Positions 34,811 to 46,185 of a stretch of 64,000 nucleotides of DNA are shown one piece after another (positions within the stretch are counted from its first letter, which is position 1; each line of letters begins with the position of its first letter). Origin of the DNA: Escherichia coli (GTDB lineage: Bacteria > Pseudomonadota > Gammaproteobacteria > Enterobacterales > Enterobacteriaceae); assembly GCF_003334335.1 (NCBI RefSeq), contig NZ_QOWQ01000021.1; one strand, 5' to 3'. The notes beneath the pieces are model-generated. The model was not told the origin of the DNA, ran no database searches, and was given only the letters and a program-made list of their open reading frames with translations. The position numbers and the translations under genes were made by a program.

Positions 34811-35812
34811 TTACCCTCTATTGTCAAAGGGATTCAGTTCAACAGCAGCCTCTAAATGACCCGGCGCAAAGTGTGCATAACGCATAGTCATTTTTATATC
34901 GCTATGCCCCAGTATTTTTTGCAACACAAGAATATTTCCTCCCCGCATCATAAAATGGCTGGCAAACGTATGACGTAGCACATGAGTTAATTGTCCGTCA
35001 GGAAGTTCGATCTTTGCTCTCTTAATAGCGGCGTCAAAAGCCTCATAACATGGTGAAAAAAGCGCCCCGCGTTTTTTAGGAAGCATGGCCTGCAATTGAG
35101 GTGAAATAGGTACAGTGCGGTTCTTCTTTCCTTTGGTTTTAACAAATGTGATTCGTCCAGGCAGTATTTGAGATTGCTTTAATCCCTCTGCTTCACTCCA
35201 CCTGGCACCAGTCGCAAGCCCAATACGGACGACAACACCCAAATCTTTATTCCGTGACTCATCACATGCAATCAGAAGGCGTTCAATCTCATCTGCATAC
35301 AGAAACGCCTGTTCCTTTTCTTCCTCACGAAACTTGCGAATACCTGTCAATGGATTTTCACCAGACCACTCCCCAAGGCGCTTCAGTTCAGCAAAAACAG
35401 CATGTAAATATGACTGTTCGCGATTAACGGTTGCTTCACTAAGTTTTTTCTTCCCCTTTGGATTCCATTCACCTGATAACCGCCGCTCCCTGTAGATGGC
35501 AAACATATTTTTATCAAATTGAGAAGCAAACGGATCACCCAACCTAGAACAAATCGCCTCAAGTTTAGCCTTGCGCTCTTCACCGGAAGACAACGTTTTA
35601 CCGTACATTTCAAACCAGCGAGCAACCAACTCGGAAAGACGGGGGCCAGAACCATCCTGAAACTCGCCCCCTAAATTACCGTTCATTAAACGGCGCTCAT
35701 AAGAGAGCGCCTCACCTTTAGTAGCAAACTGCTTACGAATGCGTTTTCCTGCTGCTCCGTAGGGATAGCATTCACAGAGCCATTTACCAGTAGATAGTTT
35801 ACGAACAGACAT
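34811..35812 (-). CDS. int: P2-type tyrosine integrase
   Basis: Track ORF 34811..35887; start MSVRKLSTGKW aligns with the P2 Int N-terminus; catalytic R...HxxR...Y motifs (ATGARWSEA, HVLRHTFASH, MRYAHFAP). Confidence 0.9.
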   Translation of the reverse strand: MSVRKLSTGKWLCECYPYGAAGKRIRKQFATKGEALSYERRLMNGNLGGEFQDGSGPRLSELVARWFEMYGKTLSSGEERKAKLEAICSRLGDPFASQFDKNMFAIYRERRLSGEWNPKGKKKLSEATVNREQSYLHAVFAELKRLGEWSGENPLTGIRKFREEEKEQAFLYADEIERLLIACDESRNKDLGVVVRIGLATGARWSEAEGLKQSQILPGRITFVKTKGKKNRTVPISPQLQAMLPKKRGALFSPCYEAFDAAIKRAKIELPDGQLTHVLRHTFASHFMMRGGNILVLQKILGHSDIKMTMRYAHFAPGHLEAAVELNPFDNRG

Positions 35813-35846
35813 ATTAAAAAGTGCACACCAAGGAAAATTTTCGTGA

Positions 35847-36104
35847 TTAAGATGGTTGCTCAACCCGCATAAAGAGCTTTTCATCAACTAACTGCTCCCA
35901 TTCATCGGGATCAAGCTCCCAAGAAGGAGCCGACATATCATCCTCATCCCCCTCATTTACAAAAGTAACCAAATAGAAAGGAAGATCTCCGGGCTCATCG
36001 TCATCGTCCTTGACAATATGAACATTAGTAACAACTATACGATTAGATGGATTAACTTTAGATACATATAAACCAATTAATGGAATTTGCGGATTAGTTA
36101 CCAT
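35847..36104 (-). CDS. hypothetical highly acidic 85 aa protein (cargo between repressor and integrase)
   Basis: ATG with upstream agagg SD; product has runs of D/E (VKDDDDEPGDLPFYLVTFVNEGDEDDMSAPSWELDPDEWEQLVDE); no family recognised. Confidence 0.6.
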   Translation of the reverse strand: MVTNPQIPLIGLYVSKVNPSNRIVVTNVHIVKDDDDEPGDLPFYLVTFVNEGDEDDMSAPSWELDPDEWEQLVDEKLFMRVEQPS

Positions 36105-36962: not shown

Positions 36963-37367
36963 TCACTTACCCTTTGTTTCGTTATAGTCACGGCCTGCGA
37001 TGCGGTTATTCCCGCCAGAGATATTTAACCCTCCCCCTGATGACTGACTCTCCTTTTCAGTGACTGCACCTTTCAAAGCACCAATCACCGCGTTTTTCAC
37101 ATCTAGTGAGGCACTCCGAAAACGTGTGATCAACTCCTGCTCATCATCGTTATAAGTTTCAGGTGAATGAATTCCCAACACGACATACTGAACATCAAGG
37201 CCAAAACGCGACAACGCTGATAAGTACGCCGCATCAGGAAAGCTATCCCCTTTCTCATATCTAAGTTGGGTTAACTTTTTAACCCCACCAATATCACTCA
37301 TAGCGACTTGGCTAAGACCCAGCCGTTCCCTTTCCTCACGCAACCGTTGGCCAATATCATTTTTCAT
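36963..37367 (-). CDS. XRE-family HTH repressor (immunity repressor, P2 C / CI equivalent)
   Basis: 134 aa; N-terminal HTH_XRE (IGQRLREERERLGLSQVAMSDIGGVKKLTQLRYEKG); leftward, divergent from the cox-like gene as in P2 immunity regions. Confidence 0.8.
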   Translation of the reverse strand: MKNDIGQRLREERERLGLSQVAMSDIGGVKKLTQLRYEKGDSFPDAAYLSALSRFGLDVQYVVLGIHSPETYNDDEQELITRFRSASLDVKNAVIGALKGAVTEKESQSSGGGLNISGGNNRIAGRDYNETKGK

Positions 37368-39302: not shown

Positions 39303-39527
39303 ATGAGAACAGTCGAATCACCCGCAACCGCCAGACCAGTTAACCATCATGCACATATCAGCATGGCCGCGAGAAAAGCCGAGCGTGCGCATATCTGCGA
39401 ATTGCTCCGAGACCTGGTTAACACGGCGAAAGAGAAGCACTCCTCCCCGCTGGAAACCTGTTCAGCCATTGAACGACTGATTGCAACGCTCACGAACAAC
39501 ACCGAACTGAAGGGGTCAGCGCAATGA
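39303..39527 (+). CDS. hypothetical protein, 74 aa
   Basis: Internal ATG of track ORF 39279..39527 preceded by aggag; stop overlaps the exonuclease start. Confidence 0.5.
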   Translation: MRTVESPATARPVNHHAHISMAARKAERAHICELLRDLVNTAKEKHSSPLETCSAIERLIATLTNNTELKGSAQ

Positions 39528-40105
39528 ACCATCTCATGATTGACACCGAAACACTGGGTAACGGACCGGACGCAGCCATATTCGCGATCGGGGCGGTGTT
39601 TTTCGACCCGTTCACCGGAAAGCTGGGCAAGCAGTTTGAGAAATTCATCGACCCGGTAGATTCAGAACGCAACGGCGGAACCGTCAATGCAGCCACCGCT
39701 GTATGGTGGGCCGGACAATCCGTGGAGGCCAGATCCTGCCTGCGCAACGCAGAGGGAACAGAGCTTGCGGCAGTAACCGAATTTCTGGCGTTCATTTCAC
39801 GCAATATGCATGACGAAAGCACGGGCAATTCACTGACCATATGGTGTAAGGGCGCATCCTTCGATTTCCCGATCCTGAAATCCGCCATAACACGCACAGC
39901 CGGAGAAAAAAGCATCCCCTGGTGCTACTGGAACGAGCGCTGTATGCGCCCGCTTATCGCCATGGCTGAATCAACTGGATGGAAAATGCCAGGCAGATCA
40001 GGAAAAGAGGCCATTGCTCACACCGCGCTGGGCGACGCCATTTACCAGGCAAAGGTCGTGTCAGAAATCTGGCAGCGCTTCACAACACCATTCCTGAACA
40101 TATGA
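39524..40105 (+). CDS. DnaQ-like 3-prime-5-prime exonuclease (DEDDh family)
   Basis: 193 aa; Exo I motif MIDTETLG and Exo III motif HTALGDA. Confidence 0.75.
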   Translation: MNHLMIDTETLGNGPDAAIFAIGAVFFDPFTGKLGKQFEKFIDPVDSERNGGTVNAATAVWWAGQSVEARSCLRNAEGTELAAVTEFLAFISRNMHDESTGNSLTIWCKGASFDFPILKSAITRTAGEKSIPWCYWNERCMRPLIAMAESTGWKMPGRSGKEAIAHTALGDAIYQAKVVSEIWQRFTTPFLNI

Positions 40106-40338
40106 GGTGAAGCCATGGTCGCCATCCTGAATGTGTGTTGCTGCCCCCCCCTGAACGTGGAAAGAAAAGCCCGCGCATCGCTGCGTTTATTCCGCGACGG
40201 CGTGCGGAATTTTTCACGCATAAAACCCCACGACTACCTGGTAATAAGAATCGGTTTCCGCTGGCGATTACTGAGCAAAAACAACGGGGCGTCATGGGAT
40301 TTATTAACGCACGAAACCTATAACAAAGAGGCCGCGTT

Positions 40339-41319
40339 ATGAGCAAAGAACTGTTATCCGGTACGCCACTGAAATGGGTGGGCGGAAAAAGCCGCATCAT
40401 GAACACACTGAAGGCGCACCTGCCAGAAGCCGACTGTCTGGTTGAGCCGTTCGTGGGCGGCGCATCGGTATTCATGAACACCAGTTACAAGCGTTACATC
40501 CTGGGTGATTCCAATGGTGCGCTGATTAATTTCTACCGGCAAGCTAGGGACAACACCGACAGCCTGATCGACGAGGCGAAAACCCTGTTCCTGAACCACA
40601 ACAACAGGGGTGACTATCTCATCATTCGCGAAACCTTTAACGCAGAGAATCATGCCTTCCTGAACAGCAGAACGGGAATAAGCGACCGCCGTGAACTGCG
40701 ACTGGCCGCCATGTTTTTGTACCTGAACCGACACAGCTTTAACGGTTTGTTCCGCGTGAACGGAAAAGGCGATTTTAACGTGCCTTTCGGCTGCTACCGC
40801 AAGCCCTACTTCCCTGAGCGTGAAATCCGCGCATTTGCAGACAAGGCAAACAGCACCCGAACGCTGCTTATCCACGCAGATTTTAAGGATACGCTGAACT
40901 CTGCCAGTCACCTGTTCGGCATGGGCAACACGCTTTGCGTGTACTGCGATCCCCCTTACCTGCAATTCAGTGGCCGGGACAATTTTACCGCCTACGGAAA
41001 ACCATTCGATGAAGACGAGCACGTTCGTCTGAGGGCAGCGCTTGACCGCCTTTCACAGGAAACGGGCGGCATGACCAGCATCACCATCTCCAATTCCGAC
41101 ACACCGGAAACACGACGCATTTATCGGGGTTACCGGATGAACTGCATACAGGCACCACGAAGCGTTGGCGCAAGAACCCGGGAATCAGCACCGGAGGTTA
41201 TCGCCACCCTGAGACAGTGCGACGCCTGCGGTCACCATGGCGGTGGCTACTGCCCGGACTGCGGACCTGTAACGGGAGATGCAACTTACAGCGTGATGTT
41301 TACCCCTGCCAGTACGTGA
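40339..41319 (+). CDS. Dam-family DNA N6-adenine methyltransferase with C-terminal Cys-rich extension
   Basis: 326 aa; FxGxG SAM motif (VEPFVGGASVF) and catalytic DPPY; C-terminus CDACGHHGGGYCPDCGP looks like a zinc ribbon. Confidence 0.85.
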   Translation: MSKELLSGTPLKWVGGKSRIMNTLKAHLPEADCLVEPFVGGASVFMNTSYKRYILGDSNGALINFYRQARDNTDSLIDEAKTLFLNHNNRGDYLIIRETFNAENHAFLNSRTGISDRRELRLAAMFLYLNRHSFNGLFRVNGKGDFNVPFGCYRKPYFPEREIRAFADKANSTRTLLIHADFKDTLNSASHLFGMGNTLCVYCDPPYLQFSGRDNFTAYGKPFDEDEHVRLRAALDRLSQETGGMTSITISNSDTPETRRIYRGYRMNCIQAPRSVGARTRESAPEVIATLRQCDACGHHGGGYCPDCGPVTGDATYSVMFTPAST

Positions 41320-41354: not shown

Positions 41355-41591
41355 ATGAATAGCGAAAACAACAAAGAGCTTTTGCGGGAATTGCGTCTCA
41401 TCGCCCGTGCACATGAGGAAGCAGCAAAAGTTATCGCTGCTGCTGGAAGACCAGAGCTCGTTATCGCTTCAGCAATCTCACTGAGGATCACCATGGAAGC
41501 AATCCGGGTGATTCAGGATCAGGAAAGTGAAATCGCCACCCTTAAAAAGCAGCTCAACGAGAAATCTGCCGGGCAAAGGAGTCAGCAATGA
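41355..41591 (+). CDS. hypothetical protein, 78 aa
   Basis: Track ORF; predicted helical; early operon. Confidence 0.45.
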   Translation: MNSENNKELLRELRLIARAHEEAAKVIAAAGRPELVIASAISLRITMEAIRVIQDQESEIATLKKQLNEKSAGQRSQQ

Positions 41592-41806
41592 TCCAGGAAT
41601 CAACCGTTATCCGGTTCACAGCCAACGGCCGTCAGTACGAGGTAGACGAAGCCCTGATTGATTACAGCATGACCCGCCAGAGCTCACGCTTTCAGGACAT
41701 GTACCACATCCGGCTAATCAACGGTTCGTCTTTCAACGCCACAAACGTGGAAGAAGTACGCGTGCTGACAGCAACACGCAACACGGGAGGTAAAGCGTGG
41801 CAGTGA
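41588..41806 (+). CDS. hypothetical protein, 72 aa
   Basis: Track ORF overlapping neighbours by a few nt, indicating translational coupling. Confidence 0.45.
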   Translation: MIQESTVIRFTANGRQYEVDEALIDYSMTRQSSRFQDMYHIRLINGSSFNATNVEEVRVLTATRNTGGKAWQ

Positions 41807-42147
41807 TTTATATCGCCGGCCCCATGACCGGATACGAAGACTGCAATAGAACGGCGTTTTGCCTGGAGGATCTGAAGCTTCGGTGCGCCGGAAACATCGT
41901 TCTTAATCCTGCCGTACTGCCTGACGGATTAAGCCAGCAGCAGTACATGAGTATTTGTATTCCGATGCTCATGTGTGCCGATGCCATTTACTTACTGGAT
42001 GGATGGGAAGAATCCGCTGGCGCACGGGCTGAGTACGCAATGGCGCTCAAACTGAACATGCCAGTGTCATTCCCGGAAAACCGGGCAGCCGTCGAAACCG
42101 TCGCGCAGCTGCTTCACAAATCAAAAGCCACACAGGCGACTGAGTAA
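41797..42147 (+). CDS. DUF4406 / nucleoside 2-deoxyribosyltransferase-like protein
   Basis: 116 aa; VIYIAGPMTG ... LLDGWEESAGARAEYAMALKLNMPV resembles the small Rossmann-like DUF4406 family common in prophages. Confidence 0.6.
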   Translation: MAVIYIAGPMTGYEDCNRTAFCLEDLKLRCAGNIVLNPAVLPDGLSQQQYMSICIPMLMCADAIYLLDGWEESAGARAEYAMALKLNMPVSFPENRAAVETVAQLLHKSKATQATE

Positions 42148-42585
42148 CCGACCGGAGATCGAAACATGATTGCGCGAAGAGCTGCCAACCGCCTCACAGG
42201 CTTTATTCCAGGCAAGGTTGATCATGCACTCCATCACGGCGCTGTCACTTTCCTCAACAAAGGAGAGGCGCGCAATCATGCATTCTGGGGTGAGCACGTG
42301 GCGCTGGCTAATCAGTCTTTGATAGCTAAGCGCCTGCCATTCAGCCTTTTCAGCTCTGATAGAAAGAGAGGCAGCCATGACCTGCCACACCAGAAAGAGC
42401 ACCACACTGGCGAAAACAAACGTTGCGCTGTCGCAAAAAATGAATGCGGCAACAATCGCAAGGAAAGCGCTAATCCTCAGAACCAAGGAAGCGCGACGGT
42501 GGAGAAGGCTTGTCATGTGTTCAAGCCAGTAGCTGTACCACAGGTCAAAAAGAATTTCGTAATCAGAAGGGAGCTTATCACTCAT
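42121..42585 (-). CDS. hypothetical membrane protein (about 154 aa, 2 TM) encoded antisense to the early operon
   Basis: Track ORF 42121..42768; first ATG at 42585 gives MSDKLPSDYEILFDLWYSYWLEHM... with two hydrophobic helices; its 3-prime end overlaps the DUF4406 gene convergently by about 27 nt. Confidence 0.55.
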   Translation of the reverse strand: MSDKLPSDYEILFDLWYSYWLEHMTSLLHRRASLVLRISAFLAIVAAFIFCDSATFVFASVVLFLVWQVMAASLSIRAEKAEWQALSYQRLISQRHVLTPECMIARLSFVEESDSAVMECMINLAWNKACEAVGSSSRNHVSISGRLLSRLCGF

Positions 42586-42765
42586 CAGAAACACCCCGCG
42601 TATGCAGACAATCACCAGTTGCCAGGTGATATTAATTCGCAACATTCTAACCACATCAGCACGCAACACAAAAACCGCTTGCCAGCGCTCGTCGTGTCGG
42701 GTTACATTTCCGCTGCACCTCATAAAACGGGTGCCGGGATTTCCACCCCGCTGACAAACGAAGCG

Positions 42766-42790
42766 CACAGCCGCGCCAGCGGTTTTTTTG
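42766..42790 (+). terminator. terminator-like hairpin plus T-run in non-coding gap
   Basis: ccgc-gcca-gcgg followed by ttttttt. Confidence 0.35.
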
Positions 42791-43258
42791 TGCGTACTGT
42801 ATCGCCACGTCTTTTTCGCGTCAGAATTATGGCGGGGCGTACAGGGCCGACTTCGGTCGGGCCGGTTTCTTCGTTTGCCGGTTGTGGAAACCCTGTACGT
42901 CTCGCCACCCTGAGTTTTCCACCTCTGGTTGGTGAGTTTTCAAAATTCACAAACGAAGAGGCCACACCATGGCAAACCGCAAGCAACAGCGCGCCCGCGC
43001 TGAGCGTCTTCACATCCACAGCGAAATCAACCGCAGACTTTTCCGCGCAACACGCGTCGCGCAAATCATGCATATCAACATGCTGCATGAGCGCACGCAC
43101 GCACTATCAAACCGTTACTGCGCTGCCGTCTTCAGCTATCTGGCCGAAGACCTGGCAGAACTGCAAAGCCTCATCAACCAGCACCGATAAACCACATCCG
43201 GAAGCTATCCCACACCTGCACGCGGGAGGCTTCCGCACATCTGTTACCGGAGGTTCTC

Positions 43259-43675
43259 ATGAAGAGCGTTAAGGGACTTTCAGATATTCAGGACTTTTTT
43301 AACTGGATGTGGGCGGAGGATCCCCTGCTGGCTTCCCGCCTGAACGACTGGCACGACTGTTACCGTCGCGCCTGTAAACAGGCTGCCCGCAGCGTCACCA
43401 CATACGGGGATTTCTCCTTCACCGTTGACGATCGTTACCGCGTGGACGTGAAAGGTGATGGTGATGGCTTTGGTTTATTTCACATCAACGGCATCGACAG
43501 CACCACCATCAGCTGGTCGTCATCAGAGATGGCGCTTGTGCTGGAGATGACAAACCACAGCGTGGCCGTGAAAGGTATATACACCGCAGAAGACTTTATC
43601 GGTGAATACCAGCGCCTTCTCATGCTGTACCGCGCGGCGTTTCAGGCGGCAACTGCCGGGGAGTGCGACGCATGA
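43259..43675 (+). CDS. hypothetical protein, 138 aa (upstream of A; B/orf-equivalent position)
   Basis: Track ORF; stop overlaps the start of gene A (ATGA). Confidence 0.55.
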   Translation: MKSVKGLSDIQDFFNWMWAEDPLLASRLNDWHDCYRRACKQAARSVTTYGDFSFTVDDRYRVDVKGDGDGFGLFHINGIDSTTISWSSSEMALVLEMTNHSVAVKGIYTAEDFIGEYQRLLMLYRAAFQAATAGECDA

Positions 43676-46185
43676 GCGACCATAACGCACAACTGGCGTA
43701 CCCGTGGAACGCCCCGCTGCAAGTTATCGATCCTGAAACGTTCGGCAGAGCGCAACCAACCGCATTACGCCAGGTCATTCAGAGCTACATCAACGAAGAC
43801 ATTCGCATTGATGCCAGACTAGATGAAGAAACCGTCGCCTTCCTGACAAACACAGACGAAGGCAAGCGAATTAATTTGCATCTTCACCGCGACGAAGAGC
43901 GTCGGATCAGACTGGAAAAAGTGGTGCGGCGCAAACGCGAATATCCGCCCACGCTGGTATCGAAAGCCATGGCAGAACTTCGCGCCCTGCCCTCGTTTCT
44001 TGGTAACGCGCTCATTCGTGATCTGGCGCGTTTAAACCGCAAACAGCAAAGCGCCCGCCATGAAGGCGTGAAAAACAACAATACACACGTGGCTGATAAC
44101 TTTGTTCGCCGTGGACTGCGCACACGCCTGAAACGCATCGAACAGGTGAATGAACGCTTCGCCACGACAGCATTCAAAGCCACCGCAGCGCGTCATCGCC
44201 TTGATGAATTACTCATGCTGCCACAACTCAACCGTGATCAAATTCAGCGCCTTGCCACACTAACGGCGGCGGCATTTTCCACCGAACTGGAACGCATATG
44301 TGATGAAGTTACTGAGCGGACAGGAAAAGGTGACGATAACCTGTTCACCTGGTTGCTGACTTACCAGCAGCTGGCGCGCATGGCGTTAAAACTGGGCGTG
44401 ACCCCACCATACTGGCCGTCACTCGAGATCAGACGTGACCGCCGCACGGCACCAGACCCTGAACTGGTACCGGGTGCGGTAATGCGTATCACCTGCGCCA
44501 CCTGGTGGAACAACCAGCTGCGCCACCTCGCAGATCTCTGGCGGGAGGAATTACTGCGTGCCGCCGGAAGAGTATCGCGCAAGGCATCCCCCTACATCAG
44601 TCATGAGTCACTCCAGGAATTCCGGGAGAAACGCCAGCGCACCCGTGATTTTCTCAAAAGCTGGGACATTGAAAACGAAGACGGTGAACGCCTGAGTCTG
44701 GAGGACGTGTACTGGTCAGGGCTGGGGAATCCGCGCAACCGCCGCAACGAGATGATGGCCTGCGTCAGAGGGATGGAACAGGTCGCCGAATCGCGTGGTG
44801 ACTCCGCGTTCTTCGTGACAGTAACCTGCCCTTCCCGCTTTCACAGCGTGAACGAGGACGGCAGCCTGAACCCGAAATACAACGGTGCCACCGTGCGCGA
44901 TGCCAGTGATTATCTGGTTTACGACGTCTTTGCAGCTGCAAGAAAAAAACTCAACAAAGAAGGCCTGAGCTGGTACGGGGTGCGCACCGTTGAGCCACAC
45001 CATGACGGCACACCACACTGGCACATGCTAGTATTCACTTCCCCGGACAATGAAGAACGCATCATTGAAATCATGCGTGACGCAGCAATCAAATCAGATC
45101 GCGCAGAACTGGGGAATGATATTTCTCCGCGCTTCAAGTGCGAAAAAATCGACCCGGCAAAAGGCACACCGGCAAGCTACATCGCAACCTATATCGGCAA
45201 GAACCTGGACACCAGCACCTTCCATAACAATGACCCGAAAACCGGCAAACCTTACGCCGATAAAGAATCGGGAAAAACCATGGCGGAAACCGTGGAAAAC
45301 GCCATTGCCTGGGCGAGTCTCCATCGCATCCGTCAGTTCCAGTTCTTCGGAATCCCGCCCCGCCAGGTATGGCGTGAACTCCGCCGCCTTGCCGGACAGA
45401 TGGAGCGCAACCCCGCATCACCGAAGCGCCTGGACCATGACGACATTGACGCCATTCTGGCCGCCGCTGACGTGGGGTGTTTTGCCACCTACATCAACCG
45501 TCAGGGCGGCGTGCTCATTCCACGCAACCTGTACCTGATCCGCACCGCATACGAAACCGCAGATGAGGCCAATGATTACGGGGAATTTCCTCAACGTATC
45601 TGGGGAATATGCGCCCCGTCGCTCGGCGAGCGCTACACCATCTGTACCCATCCGGACGAATGGAAACTGGTCAGAAAAGAAGCGAAAACCGACAACAGCA
45701 CGGACGAGGATTTTGACGTTGGGGGCGGCTTCGCCGCACCTTGGACTCGTGGCAATAACTGTCCCCATGATGAAAAAACAGACACCGGAGAGGGTAAAAC
45801 CCCACCACCGGAAACCAGGAAAGAACAAAAACTGGTCGTCCCGGGAGGTGATTTGGGTGAGTGGTTAAGGTCACTGACCCCCACAGAGCGAAAACAACTC
45901 ACCAGGCAGCTGAAAGATGCGCCATCTGACACAAAAACCGTGAAAACCGGCGGCCCCACCACGCCCGATGACGTCATACATGTGCGTACAGCATTGCCGC
46001 TGACTGACGTCACCACCACCGTAATCAAGTCGGCACTGAGCGCGACGGGCGAGGAGCTACACAGTGGCGCAGCACTTTCCGTACACAGAGGTGCACGCGT
46101 TCGCCTGCCTGACGGGCGGATTGTGCACTGGGATGAGAAATCACGAAGCCTGGTGGCAGCAGATCAACCGGAGGTGAACCCATGA
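43672..46185 (+). CDS. A: rolling-circle replication initiator endonuclease (P2 gpA family)
   Basis: Track ORF 43663..46185; HUH-type motif HWHMLVF and twin-tyrosine motif ASYIATYIGKN as in P2 A. Confidence 0.88.
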   Translation: MSDHNAQLAYPWNAPLQVIDPETFGRAQPTALRQVIQSYINEDIRIDARLDEETVAFLTNTDEGKRINLHLHRDEERRIRLEKVVRRKREYPPTLVSKAMAELRALPSFLGNALIRDLARLNRKQQSARHEGVKNNNTHVADNFVRRGLRTRLKRIEQVNERFATTAFKATAARHRLDELLMLPQLNRDQIQRLATLTAAAFSTELERICDEVTERTGKGDDNLFTWLLTYQQLARMALKLGVTPPYWPSLEIRRDRRTAPDPELVPGAVMRITCATWWNNQLRHLADLWREELLRAAGRVSRKASPYISHESLQEFREKRQRTRDFLKSWDIENEDGERLSLEDVYWSGLGNPRNRRNEMMACVRGMEQVAESRGDSAFFVTVTCPSRFHSVNEDGSLNPKYNGATVRDASDYLVYDVFAAARKKLNKEGLSWYGVRTVEPHHDGTPHWHMLVFTSPDNEERIIEIMRDAAIKSDRAELGNDISPRFKCEKIDPAKGTPASYIATYIGKNLDTSTFHNNDPKTGKPYADKESGKTMAETVENAIAWASLHRIRQFQFFGIPPRQVWRELRRLAGQMERNPASPKRLDHDDIDAILAAADVGCFATYINRQGGVLIPRNLYLIRTAYETADEANDYGEFPQRIWGICAPSLGERYTICTHPDEWKLVRKEAKTDNSTDEDFDVGGGFAAPWTRGNNCPHDEKTDTGEGKTPPPETRKEQKLVVPGGDLGEWLRSLTPTERKQLTRQLKDAPSDTKTVKTGGPTTPDDVIHVRTALPLTDVTTTVIKSALSATGEELHSGAALSVHRGARVRLPDGRIVHWDEKSRSLVAADQPEVNP

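Follow-up and report, generated by a model that had tools for sequence, protein, structure and literature searches.

The DNA analysed here, referred to below as the window, is a stretch of 64,000 nucleotides from Escherichia coli (contig NZ_QOWQ01000021.1 of RefSeq assembly GCF_003334335.1). It contains a P2-like prophage (Peduoviridae, P88/Xuanwuvirus-like), and a small gene in the early region of this prophage, at 41797..42147 on the + strand, codes for a protein of the DUF4406 family. Its family membership, predicted structure and conserved residues place the protein in the nucleoside 2'-deoxyribosyltransferase (NDT) superfamily and suggest, tentatively, an enzyme that removes the base from a nucleotide.

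The open reading frame (ORF) comprises 116 codons followed by a stop codon. Read from the sequence, its start codon is the GTG at 41797, and a Shine-Dalgarno-like GGGAGG (41785..41790, + strand) lies 6 nt 5' of it. The homologues P0001, P0008 and P0017 have the same N-terminus, MAVIYIAGPM, in agreement with the GTG start. An upstream ORF of 72 residues (41588..41806, + strand; PHROG 3459, function unknown) overlaps the start by 10 nt, and the two genes are probably translationally coupled.

The DUF4406 gene is the last in a run of tightly packed, probably translationally coupled + strand genes, in which it is preceded by an exonuclease, a ParE-like ORF, Dam and two small ORFs. The exonuclease (39524..40105, + strand) is DnaQ-like and matches PHROG 255 with an E-value of 2.1e-60; its RefSeq relatives are annotated as 3'-5' exonucleases. 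The ParE-like ORF of 75 residues (40115..40342, + strand; PHROG 1525, function unknown) overlaps the start of Dam by 4 nt. Its RefSeq relatives are labelled 'ParE family toxin-like protein', and a partner antitoxin is not evident. Dam, a DNA adenine methyltransferase (40339..41319, + strand), scores 225.9 bits against TIGR00571, for which the cutoff is 114.85. Residues 292-322 of Dam form a Cys-rich C-terminal tail (CDACGHHGGGYCPDCG), which matches a segment of exodeoxyribonuclease VIII and the exonuclease family PHROG 20376 rather than methyltransferase models. A first-pass annotation had described an exonuclease and a Dam beside the DUF4406 gene, and had placed the latter at the end of an early accessory cluster. 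The neighbours are as described, and the DUF4406 gene is the final + strand gene before a convergent gene on the - strand.

The convergent gene (42121..42585, - strand, with a probable start and an ORF that extends to 42768; PHROG 6315, function unknown) shares 27 nt with the 3' end of the DUF4406 gene. Its hydrophobic stretches suggest that the product is a membrane protein. The synonymous divergence (dS) of this gene is about 0.7 in the related loci L090 and L091, far above that of the flanks, and it looks like an exchangeable moron placed within the early operon. A consensus scan finds a weak promoter-like site at 42679..42708 and a terminator-like hairpin with a T-run at 42769..42784 (+ strand); the early region might thus comprise two transcription units, divided by the minus-strand insert. 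Farther downstream are an ORF of 73 residues (42969..43190, + strand; PHROG 3688), which is called 'derepression protein' in relatives, and the gene for the replication endonuclease gpA (43663..46185), after which the late genes follow. The integrase (34811..35887) and the repressor (36963..37367) are encoded on the - strand, and the rightward early operon begins at about 37443.

Family membership and fold

A search with profile hidden Markov models (HMM) assigns the protein to PF14359 (DUF4406) with an E-value of 9.3e-32 and 109.7 bits, residues 3-91 corresponding to positions 2-90 of the 91 positions of the model. This family belongs to the Pfam clan of N-(deoxy)ribosyltransferase-like proteins. 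The family signature, [YF]-I-[AS]-G-P-M-[TS]-G ... N-R-x-A-F ... L-N-P-A-x-L-P-x-G-L ... Y-M ... M ... G-W-x-x-S-x-G-A-x-x-E, is complete in the window protein, and the two motifs by which the gene had first been recognised are present as VIYIAGPM (residues 3-10) and GWEESAGA (residues 69-76). The protein also matches PHROG 355, which bears the name 'nucleoside 2-deoxyribosyltransferase' (E 1.8e-39). None of the NCBIfam models matches it, and the PADLOC models for anti-phage defence and retron NDT effectors give no family at E<=0.01. PF05014, the family of the NDTs, is absent from its matches at E<=10, and matches the relatives of the protein weakly (E 0.0036-0.023).

The closest cluster representative among 466 homologues in a set of 5.8 billion proteins is 94% identical to the window protein, and 8044 clusters (50% identity) match DUF4406 at E<=0.001. 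A homologue is present in 431 sequenced phage records, which include phages of Vibrio, Arthrobacter, Gordonia, Mycobacterium, Pseudomonas and Aeromonas as well as enterobacterial phages. Near-identical copies are found in RefSeq. The gene is an annotated member of a large, uncharacterised family, and its recognition is correct but ordinary. A literature search on deoxyribosyltransferases together with phages or anti-defence returned only the retron effectors, the NDTs of Z-genome phages and Kongming.

Several unusual members of the family were seen. The 52 longer members are almost without a recognisable second domain, and the single cases are DUF551, a ClpX zinc finger and HTH_3. A protein of 1817 residues (P0210) contains 12 separate stretches that resemble DUF4406 residues ~33-74, the LNPAxLPxGL...YM segment, and it may be a repeat protein made from part of the domain. 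Two DUF4406-sized proteins of Arthrobacter and Mycobacterium phages (L093, 2480-2848, 122 residues; L094, 2474-2854, 126 residues) have been deposited as 'deoxycytidylate deaminase' (deoxycytidine monophosphate deaminase) and 'MazG-like pyrophosphatase'. Judging by the size of the proteins and by the tblastn match, these labels look like errors of naming and not like signs of fusions. In phage MiaZeal, the DUF4406-type gene is located between a gene resembling phosphoadenosine phosphosulfate (PAPS) reductase and another gene also annotated as MazG-like.

An AlphaFold2 model was built on 56 diverse family members, with a mean predicted local distance difference test score (pLDDT) of 91.2 and a predicted template modelling score of 0.83. 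Its core, residues 3-92, is a three-layer α/β structure that constitutes the NDT-superfamily domain. The helical tail, residues 93-116, is less confident, with a pLDDT of about 74-76 in the last ~25 residues. The model, which has a flavodoxin-like α/β topology, superposes on the solved members of the superfamily. The structural comparison scores were 12.8 with 1T1J, 11.9 with MilB, 9.0-11.5 with NDTs and 8.7 with Rcl, and the domains of TIR, ThsB and SARM1 formed the next group at about 9. The 1T1J structure, a structural-genomics protein of the DUF1937 family (P. aeruginosa PA1492, function unknown), is uncharacterised as well and adds no functional clue. The top match in Foldseek is the transferase of Trypanosoma brucei, 2A0K. 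Sequence searches of the PDB with the single protein or with a shallow profile of 11 sequences gave no match, and a profile of 56 sequences finds 2A0K over the full length (E 6e-4).

Catalytic residues and the predicted reaction

The residues of the putative active site were mapped with three alignments: a HMMER profile to the T. brucei enzyme (TbNDRT), hhalign to human DNPH1, with the sequence verified by comparison with its PDB chains, and hhalign to the DmtZ domain in gp53 of Arthrobacter phage Wayne. Conservation was counted in 148 family representatives at 50% identity, the denominators varying from residue to residue. The three mappings are concordant, and the DmtZ alignment starts at residue 23, beyond the Tyr position discussed below. 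Neither of the hhalign alignments is strong when taken singly, and the mapping leans on the fold and on the agreement of the two with each other.

The predicted covalent nucleophile is Glu79 (codon 42031..42033, + strand), which is equivalent to the catalytic Glu of TbNDRT, to Glu104 of DNPH1 and to the Glu of DmtZ, and which is retained in 140 of 142 representatives. Six residues ahead of it is Ser73 (codon 42013..42015, + strand), the counterpart of Ser98 in DNPH1, Ser97 in MilB and the Ser of S-W-G-V-P-A-E in DmtZ; this position is Ser in 143/144 representatives. Tyr5 (codon 41809..41811, + strand) corresponds to the Tyr of strand 1, which is Tyr24 in DNPH1 and the Tyr of YIAGP in TbNDRT, and is also given as Tyr6 in DmtZ. 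It is Tyr in 115 and Phe in 23 of 139 representatives. The third position of the triad is occupied by Cys54 (codon 41956..41958, + strand), which all three alignments place opposite Asp80 of DNPH1 or the Asn of TbNDRT and DmtZ. Among 147 representatives this residue is Cys in 101 (about 69%), Asp in 16, Thr in 12 and Gly in 7. Thus, the Glu after strand 4 and the Tyr or Phe of strand 1 that define the NDT superfamily are both present, whereas the Asp or Asn of the third triad position, on the helix before strand 3, is not. The homology and the conserved Glu79 and Tyr5 bear out the NDT-like identity given to the gene in the first-pass annotation as far as the superfamily is concerned; the transferase label fares less well, given the Ser at -6, the Cys at position 54 and the lack of a PF05014 match.

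In DNPH1, the catalytic triad consists of Tyr24, Asp80 and Glu104, and the 5'-phosphate of the substrate is coordinated by Ser98 together with Ser128' of the partner subunit. MilB retains the equivalent Ser97, and replacement of its Phe by Tyr moves its preference toward deoxyribose (PMC10603095). In the transferases, an Asp at the -6 position contacts the sugar hydroxyl of a non-phosphorylated nucleoside (PMC12884076). TbNDRT has this Asp, in the sequence EPDCGTAFE, where the window protein, DNPH1 and DmtZ have Ser. A small uncharged Ser at -6 from the Glu is characteristic of the N-glycosidases that act on (deoxy)nucleoside monophosphates, and the NDTs in the strict sense (EC 2.4.2.6) have both the Asp and a match to PF05014.

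These residues bear directly on whether the protein could be a nucleoside 2'-deoxyribosyltransferase proper, a salvage enzyme that exchanges the bases of deoxynucleosides. The name of PHROG 355, the use of the same name in many deposited phage genomes and the position of 2A0K as the top match by both sequence and Foldseek speak for such an enzyme, and some phage NDTs of the PF05014 family are active transferases (bioRxiv 10.1101/2025.10.22.683976). However, PF05014 does not match the protein and reaches only its relatives (E 0.004-0.02), the Asp at -6 is replaced by a near-invariant Ser, and the C-terminal region through which a partner subunit contacts the sugar 5'-OH and the base in NDTs is missing. 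The database name, moreover, has been passed on by similarity and not by test. A genuine transferase therefore appears unlikely.

The explanation that accounts best for the data is that the gene product is a small (deoxy)nucleoside 5'-monophosphate N-glycosidase of the NDT superfamily, resembling DNPH1/Rcl, MilB and DmtZ, and its chance of being right is judged to be somewhat below even. It is based on the family membership, the fold, the conservation of the Glu, Tyr and Ser, the purifying selection described below and the position in the early operon. From the comparison with the known enzymes, the reaction, the phosphate specificity, the preference for deoxyribose and the biological role would be as follows. 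Glu79 would attack C1' of the sugar, forming a covalent ester between a (deoxy)ribosyl 5-phosphate and the enzyme while the base leaves; the sugar phosphate would then be freed by water or, possibly, by another base. Tyr5 would orient Glu79 and favour 2'-deoxy substrates, and the 5'-phosphate would be held by Ser73 and the Ser-x-Gly loop. The protein would be expressed from the early lytic operon of the P2-like prophage, just ahead of the replication gene A. With this timing, it would edit the pool of nucleotides just as the phage begins to replicate its DNA.

Several points weigh against this proposal. The general acid of DNPH1, Asp80, is replaced by Cys54, and the chemistry may therefore differ from that of DNPH1. 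The DUF4406 domain has only ~90 residues and no counterpart of the C-terminal extension with which DNPH1 and the NDTs complete the adjacent active site. The hhalign E-values, 0.039 for DNPH1 and 0.12 for DmtZ, are both weak. Searches for 'DUF4406' and 'PF14359' found no functional study and no assayed member in the searchable literature. To our knowledge, P2-like phages neither degrade host DNA nor use modified bases, and the need for a hydrolase of deoxynucleoside monophosphates (dNMPs) is thus not obvious.

Two explanations could accommodate the replacement of the general acid by Cys. Another residue could take over the role of the acid, for example Tyr50, which is 97% conserved and is located one helical turn ahead of Cys54. 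Alternatively, the natural substrate could have a good leaving group, as nucleotides of the NAD type and alkylated nucleotides do, which would favour the less probable counter-defence role discussed below. The lack of the canonical Asp, together with the very small size of the protein, could also be taken as a sign of a non-catalytic nucleotide-binding or regulatory protein, which might act as a sponge or, as NDT-fold enzymes build composite active sites across dimers, as a subunit that poisons an NDT-fold enzyme of the host. However, the Glu is retained in 140/142 diverse representatives, and the Tyr and the Ser-x-Gly loop are kept with it, as is typical of active enzymes, which makes a role of this kind very improbable.

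Neighbouring genes, selection and allele exchange

The first-pass annotation had further proposed that the exonuclease, Dam and the DUF4406 protein form a functional cluster for nucleotide or DNA metabolism. The order of the three genes is kept within this prophage lineage. At least 80% of a 3.8-kb stretch of this region occurs in 25 of 5426 complete E. coli genomes; in E. coli G1/2 the stretch is 96.9% identical, adjoins dmsA and has the same gene order as in the window prophage. Among the 80 closest viral loci, which are mostly lambdoid prophages, an exonuclease homologue is present in one and a D12-class Dam in two, and a module of the three genes conserved throughout the family was therefore rejected. 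The arrangement represents the synteny of one lineage, and as the association is lost outside it, a joint pathway is not supported. In lambdoid loci, the DUF4406 gene usually adjoins the downstream end of the replication genes (O/P, DnaB or DnaC-like) and precedes nin-type genes.

A methyltransferase of any kind is found within 5 kb in 16 of the 80 loci and adjoins the DUF4406 gene in four. Dam is immediately upstream of DUF4406 in Aeromonas 4_4512, and a C5-methyltransferase occupies this position in Acidovorax Alfacinha3; on a metagenomic contig, methyltransferases flank DUF4406 on both sides. A PAPS-reductase-like gene is near DUF4406 in two phages. These recurrent neighbours in unrelated phages are leads. 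Non-canonical bases in the virion DNA of P2-like phages are not supported. An E. coli protein of 117 residues (P0040) matches both PF02086 and PF14359: its first ~45 residues are the N-terminus of Dam, and the rest is DUF4406 from residue ~46, without Tyr5. It has apparently arisen by an in-frame deletion joining the Dam and DUF4406 genes in a related prophage.

The E. coli G1/2 copy of the DUF4406 gene is 96.0% identical in DNA and encodes RefSeq WP_042013439.1, 'DUF4406 domain-containing protein'. The window allele itself occurs in 27 of the 5426 complete E. coli genomes. The RefSeq copies differ from the window gene in nothing of substance, and the latter is another allele. Alleles within the prophage lineage differ by 4-14% of their DNA through mosaic exchange. 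Against five E. coli prophage copies, the pairwise ratio of nonsynonymous to synonymous divergence (dN/dS) of the DUF4406 gene is 0.18-0.33, in the range found for the exonuclease, Dam and gpA. The ORF is a real gene under purifying selection and not a chance ORF.

The 72-residue ORF and the DUF4406 gene (41588-42147) are 85-90% identical to those of relatives (loci L089-L092) in which Dam and the minus-strand ORF, on either side, are 99% identical. The pattern is seen clearly in NCTC9112, where the DUF4406 gene is 87% identical and the flanks 99%. There, dS is 0.35 in the DUF4406 gene and 0.23-0.35 across the 72-residue ORF and DUF4406, versus 0.02-0.07 in Dam, orf78, the exonuclease and the minus-strand ORF, and 0.02-0.05 when Dam and the minus-strand ORF alone are taken as flanks. 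The dN/dS of the NCTC9112 DUF4406 gene is 0.29, and that of the two genes in the relatives is near 0.3-0.6. The two genes are swapped jointly among mosaic relatives. As dS climbs along with dN, the high local divergence reflects mosaic allele exchange and not positive selection, and an arms-race signal of diversifying selection was rejected.

This result is relevant to another possible function, counter-defence, in which the enzyme would break the glycosidic bond of some special nucleotide. Possible targets are a messenger of host immunity or the precursor of such a messenger, a toxic nucleotide analogue, nicotinamide adenine dinucleotide (NAD+), nicotinamide mononucleotide and an alkylated purine nucleotide. 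A good leaving group in such a substrate would make the general acid, missing through the replacement of Asp by Cys54, unnecessary. Direct evidence is lacking, however, and no PADLOC model matches. The methyltransferase association in the 80 closest loci is weak, the similarity to TIR domains is to be expected from the fold and places no catalytic residue, and purifying selection combined with recombination leaves no arms-race signature. A counter-defence role for the protein is accordingly regarded as unlikely. A broader form of the idea, namely that DUF4406 is a widespread phage family with a Tyr-Cys-Glu active site that destroys one particular nucleotide of this kind, and thus a new class of early-expressed counter-defence enzymes found in over 400 sequenced phages and in many prophages, is a speculation that seems a shade less likely still.

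By itself, the window gene matters little, as it belongs to a large family, was assigned to it correctly and has been annotated before. The family, in turn, is worth a bench test: it comprises ~8000 clusters, occurs in 431 phage records and has no published function that could be found. Its residual interest lies in this size without a tested function and in the unusual Tyr-Cys-Glu constellation. Knowledge of the substrate would show what temperate enterobacterial phages remove from the nucleotide pool when replication starts. With the substrate known, a better name could also be given than 'nucleoside 2-deoxyribosyltransferase', a label passed on by similarity that finds no support in the sequence features.

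Comparison with known enzymes

The NDTs of the PF05014 family (L. leichmannii, 1F8X; T. brucei, 2A0K) share with the DUF4406 protein the fold, the YxAGP motif at the start and the catalytic Glu. They differ from it in having Asp and not Ser at the -6 position, and in the C-terminal contacts to the partner subunit, which the DUF4406 protein lacks.

MilB, BcmB and BlsM are N-glycosidases of cytidine monophosphate (CMP) or hydroxymethyl-CMP (4JEM, 4OHB, 4JEN, 5VTO) from pathways of nucleoside antibiotics. Their biological setting is different. MilB has a Phe, associated with a preference for ribose, where the DUF4406 protein has Tyr5, and Arg23 of MilB, a ligand of the phosphate and of the hydroxymethyl group, has no established equivalent in the DUF4406 protein.

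DNPH1/Rcl, the 2'-deoxynucleoside 5'-phosphate N-hydrolase (8QHQ, 4FYH), has the same fold, the Tyr of strand 1, the Ser at -6 and the nucleophilic Glu, and the double-displacement chemistry proposed for the DUF4406 protein is like that of DNPH1. Taken alone, the two sequences have no significant similarity (hhalign E 0.039). The DUF4406 domain is about 50 residues shorter and has Cys54 for Asp80, and neither the Glu55/His56 element of DNPH1 nor the helix carrying Ser128' of the partner subunit is recognisable in it.

DmtZ of Gordonia phage Ghobes and Arthrobacter phage Wayne hydrolyses deoxyadenosine monophosphate and transfers deoxyribose 5-phosphate to 2-aminoadenine (PMC12884076). No other phage enzyme of this superfamily was found to have been tested biochemically. 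Like the DUF4406 protein, DmtZ is a small phage-encoded superfamily enzyme with an S-x-G-x-x-x-E motif; its substrate is a dNMP. The residues of DUF4406 point to a nucleotide N-glycosidase, and DmtZ, its tested phage relative, reshapes the pool of deoxynucleoside triphosphates. The triad of DmtZ is Tyr/Asn/Glu and that of the DUF4406 protein Tyr-Cys-Glu, and DmtZ is tied to two genes of the Z-genome phages, PurZ0 and Dut, that the prophage described here lacks. DmtZ was rejected as a member of DUF4406, the hhalign E-value being 0.12; no Pfam model matched it, and its authors used an HMM made by hand (PMC12884076). Most likely, the DUF4406 protein works in a manner closest to DNPH1, MilB or DmtZ, yet belongs neither to any of those families nor to PF05014.
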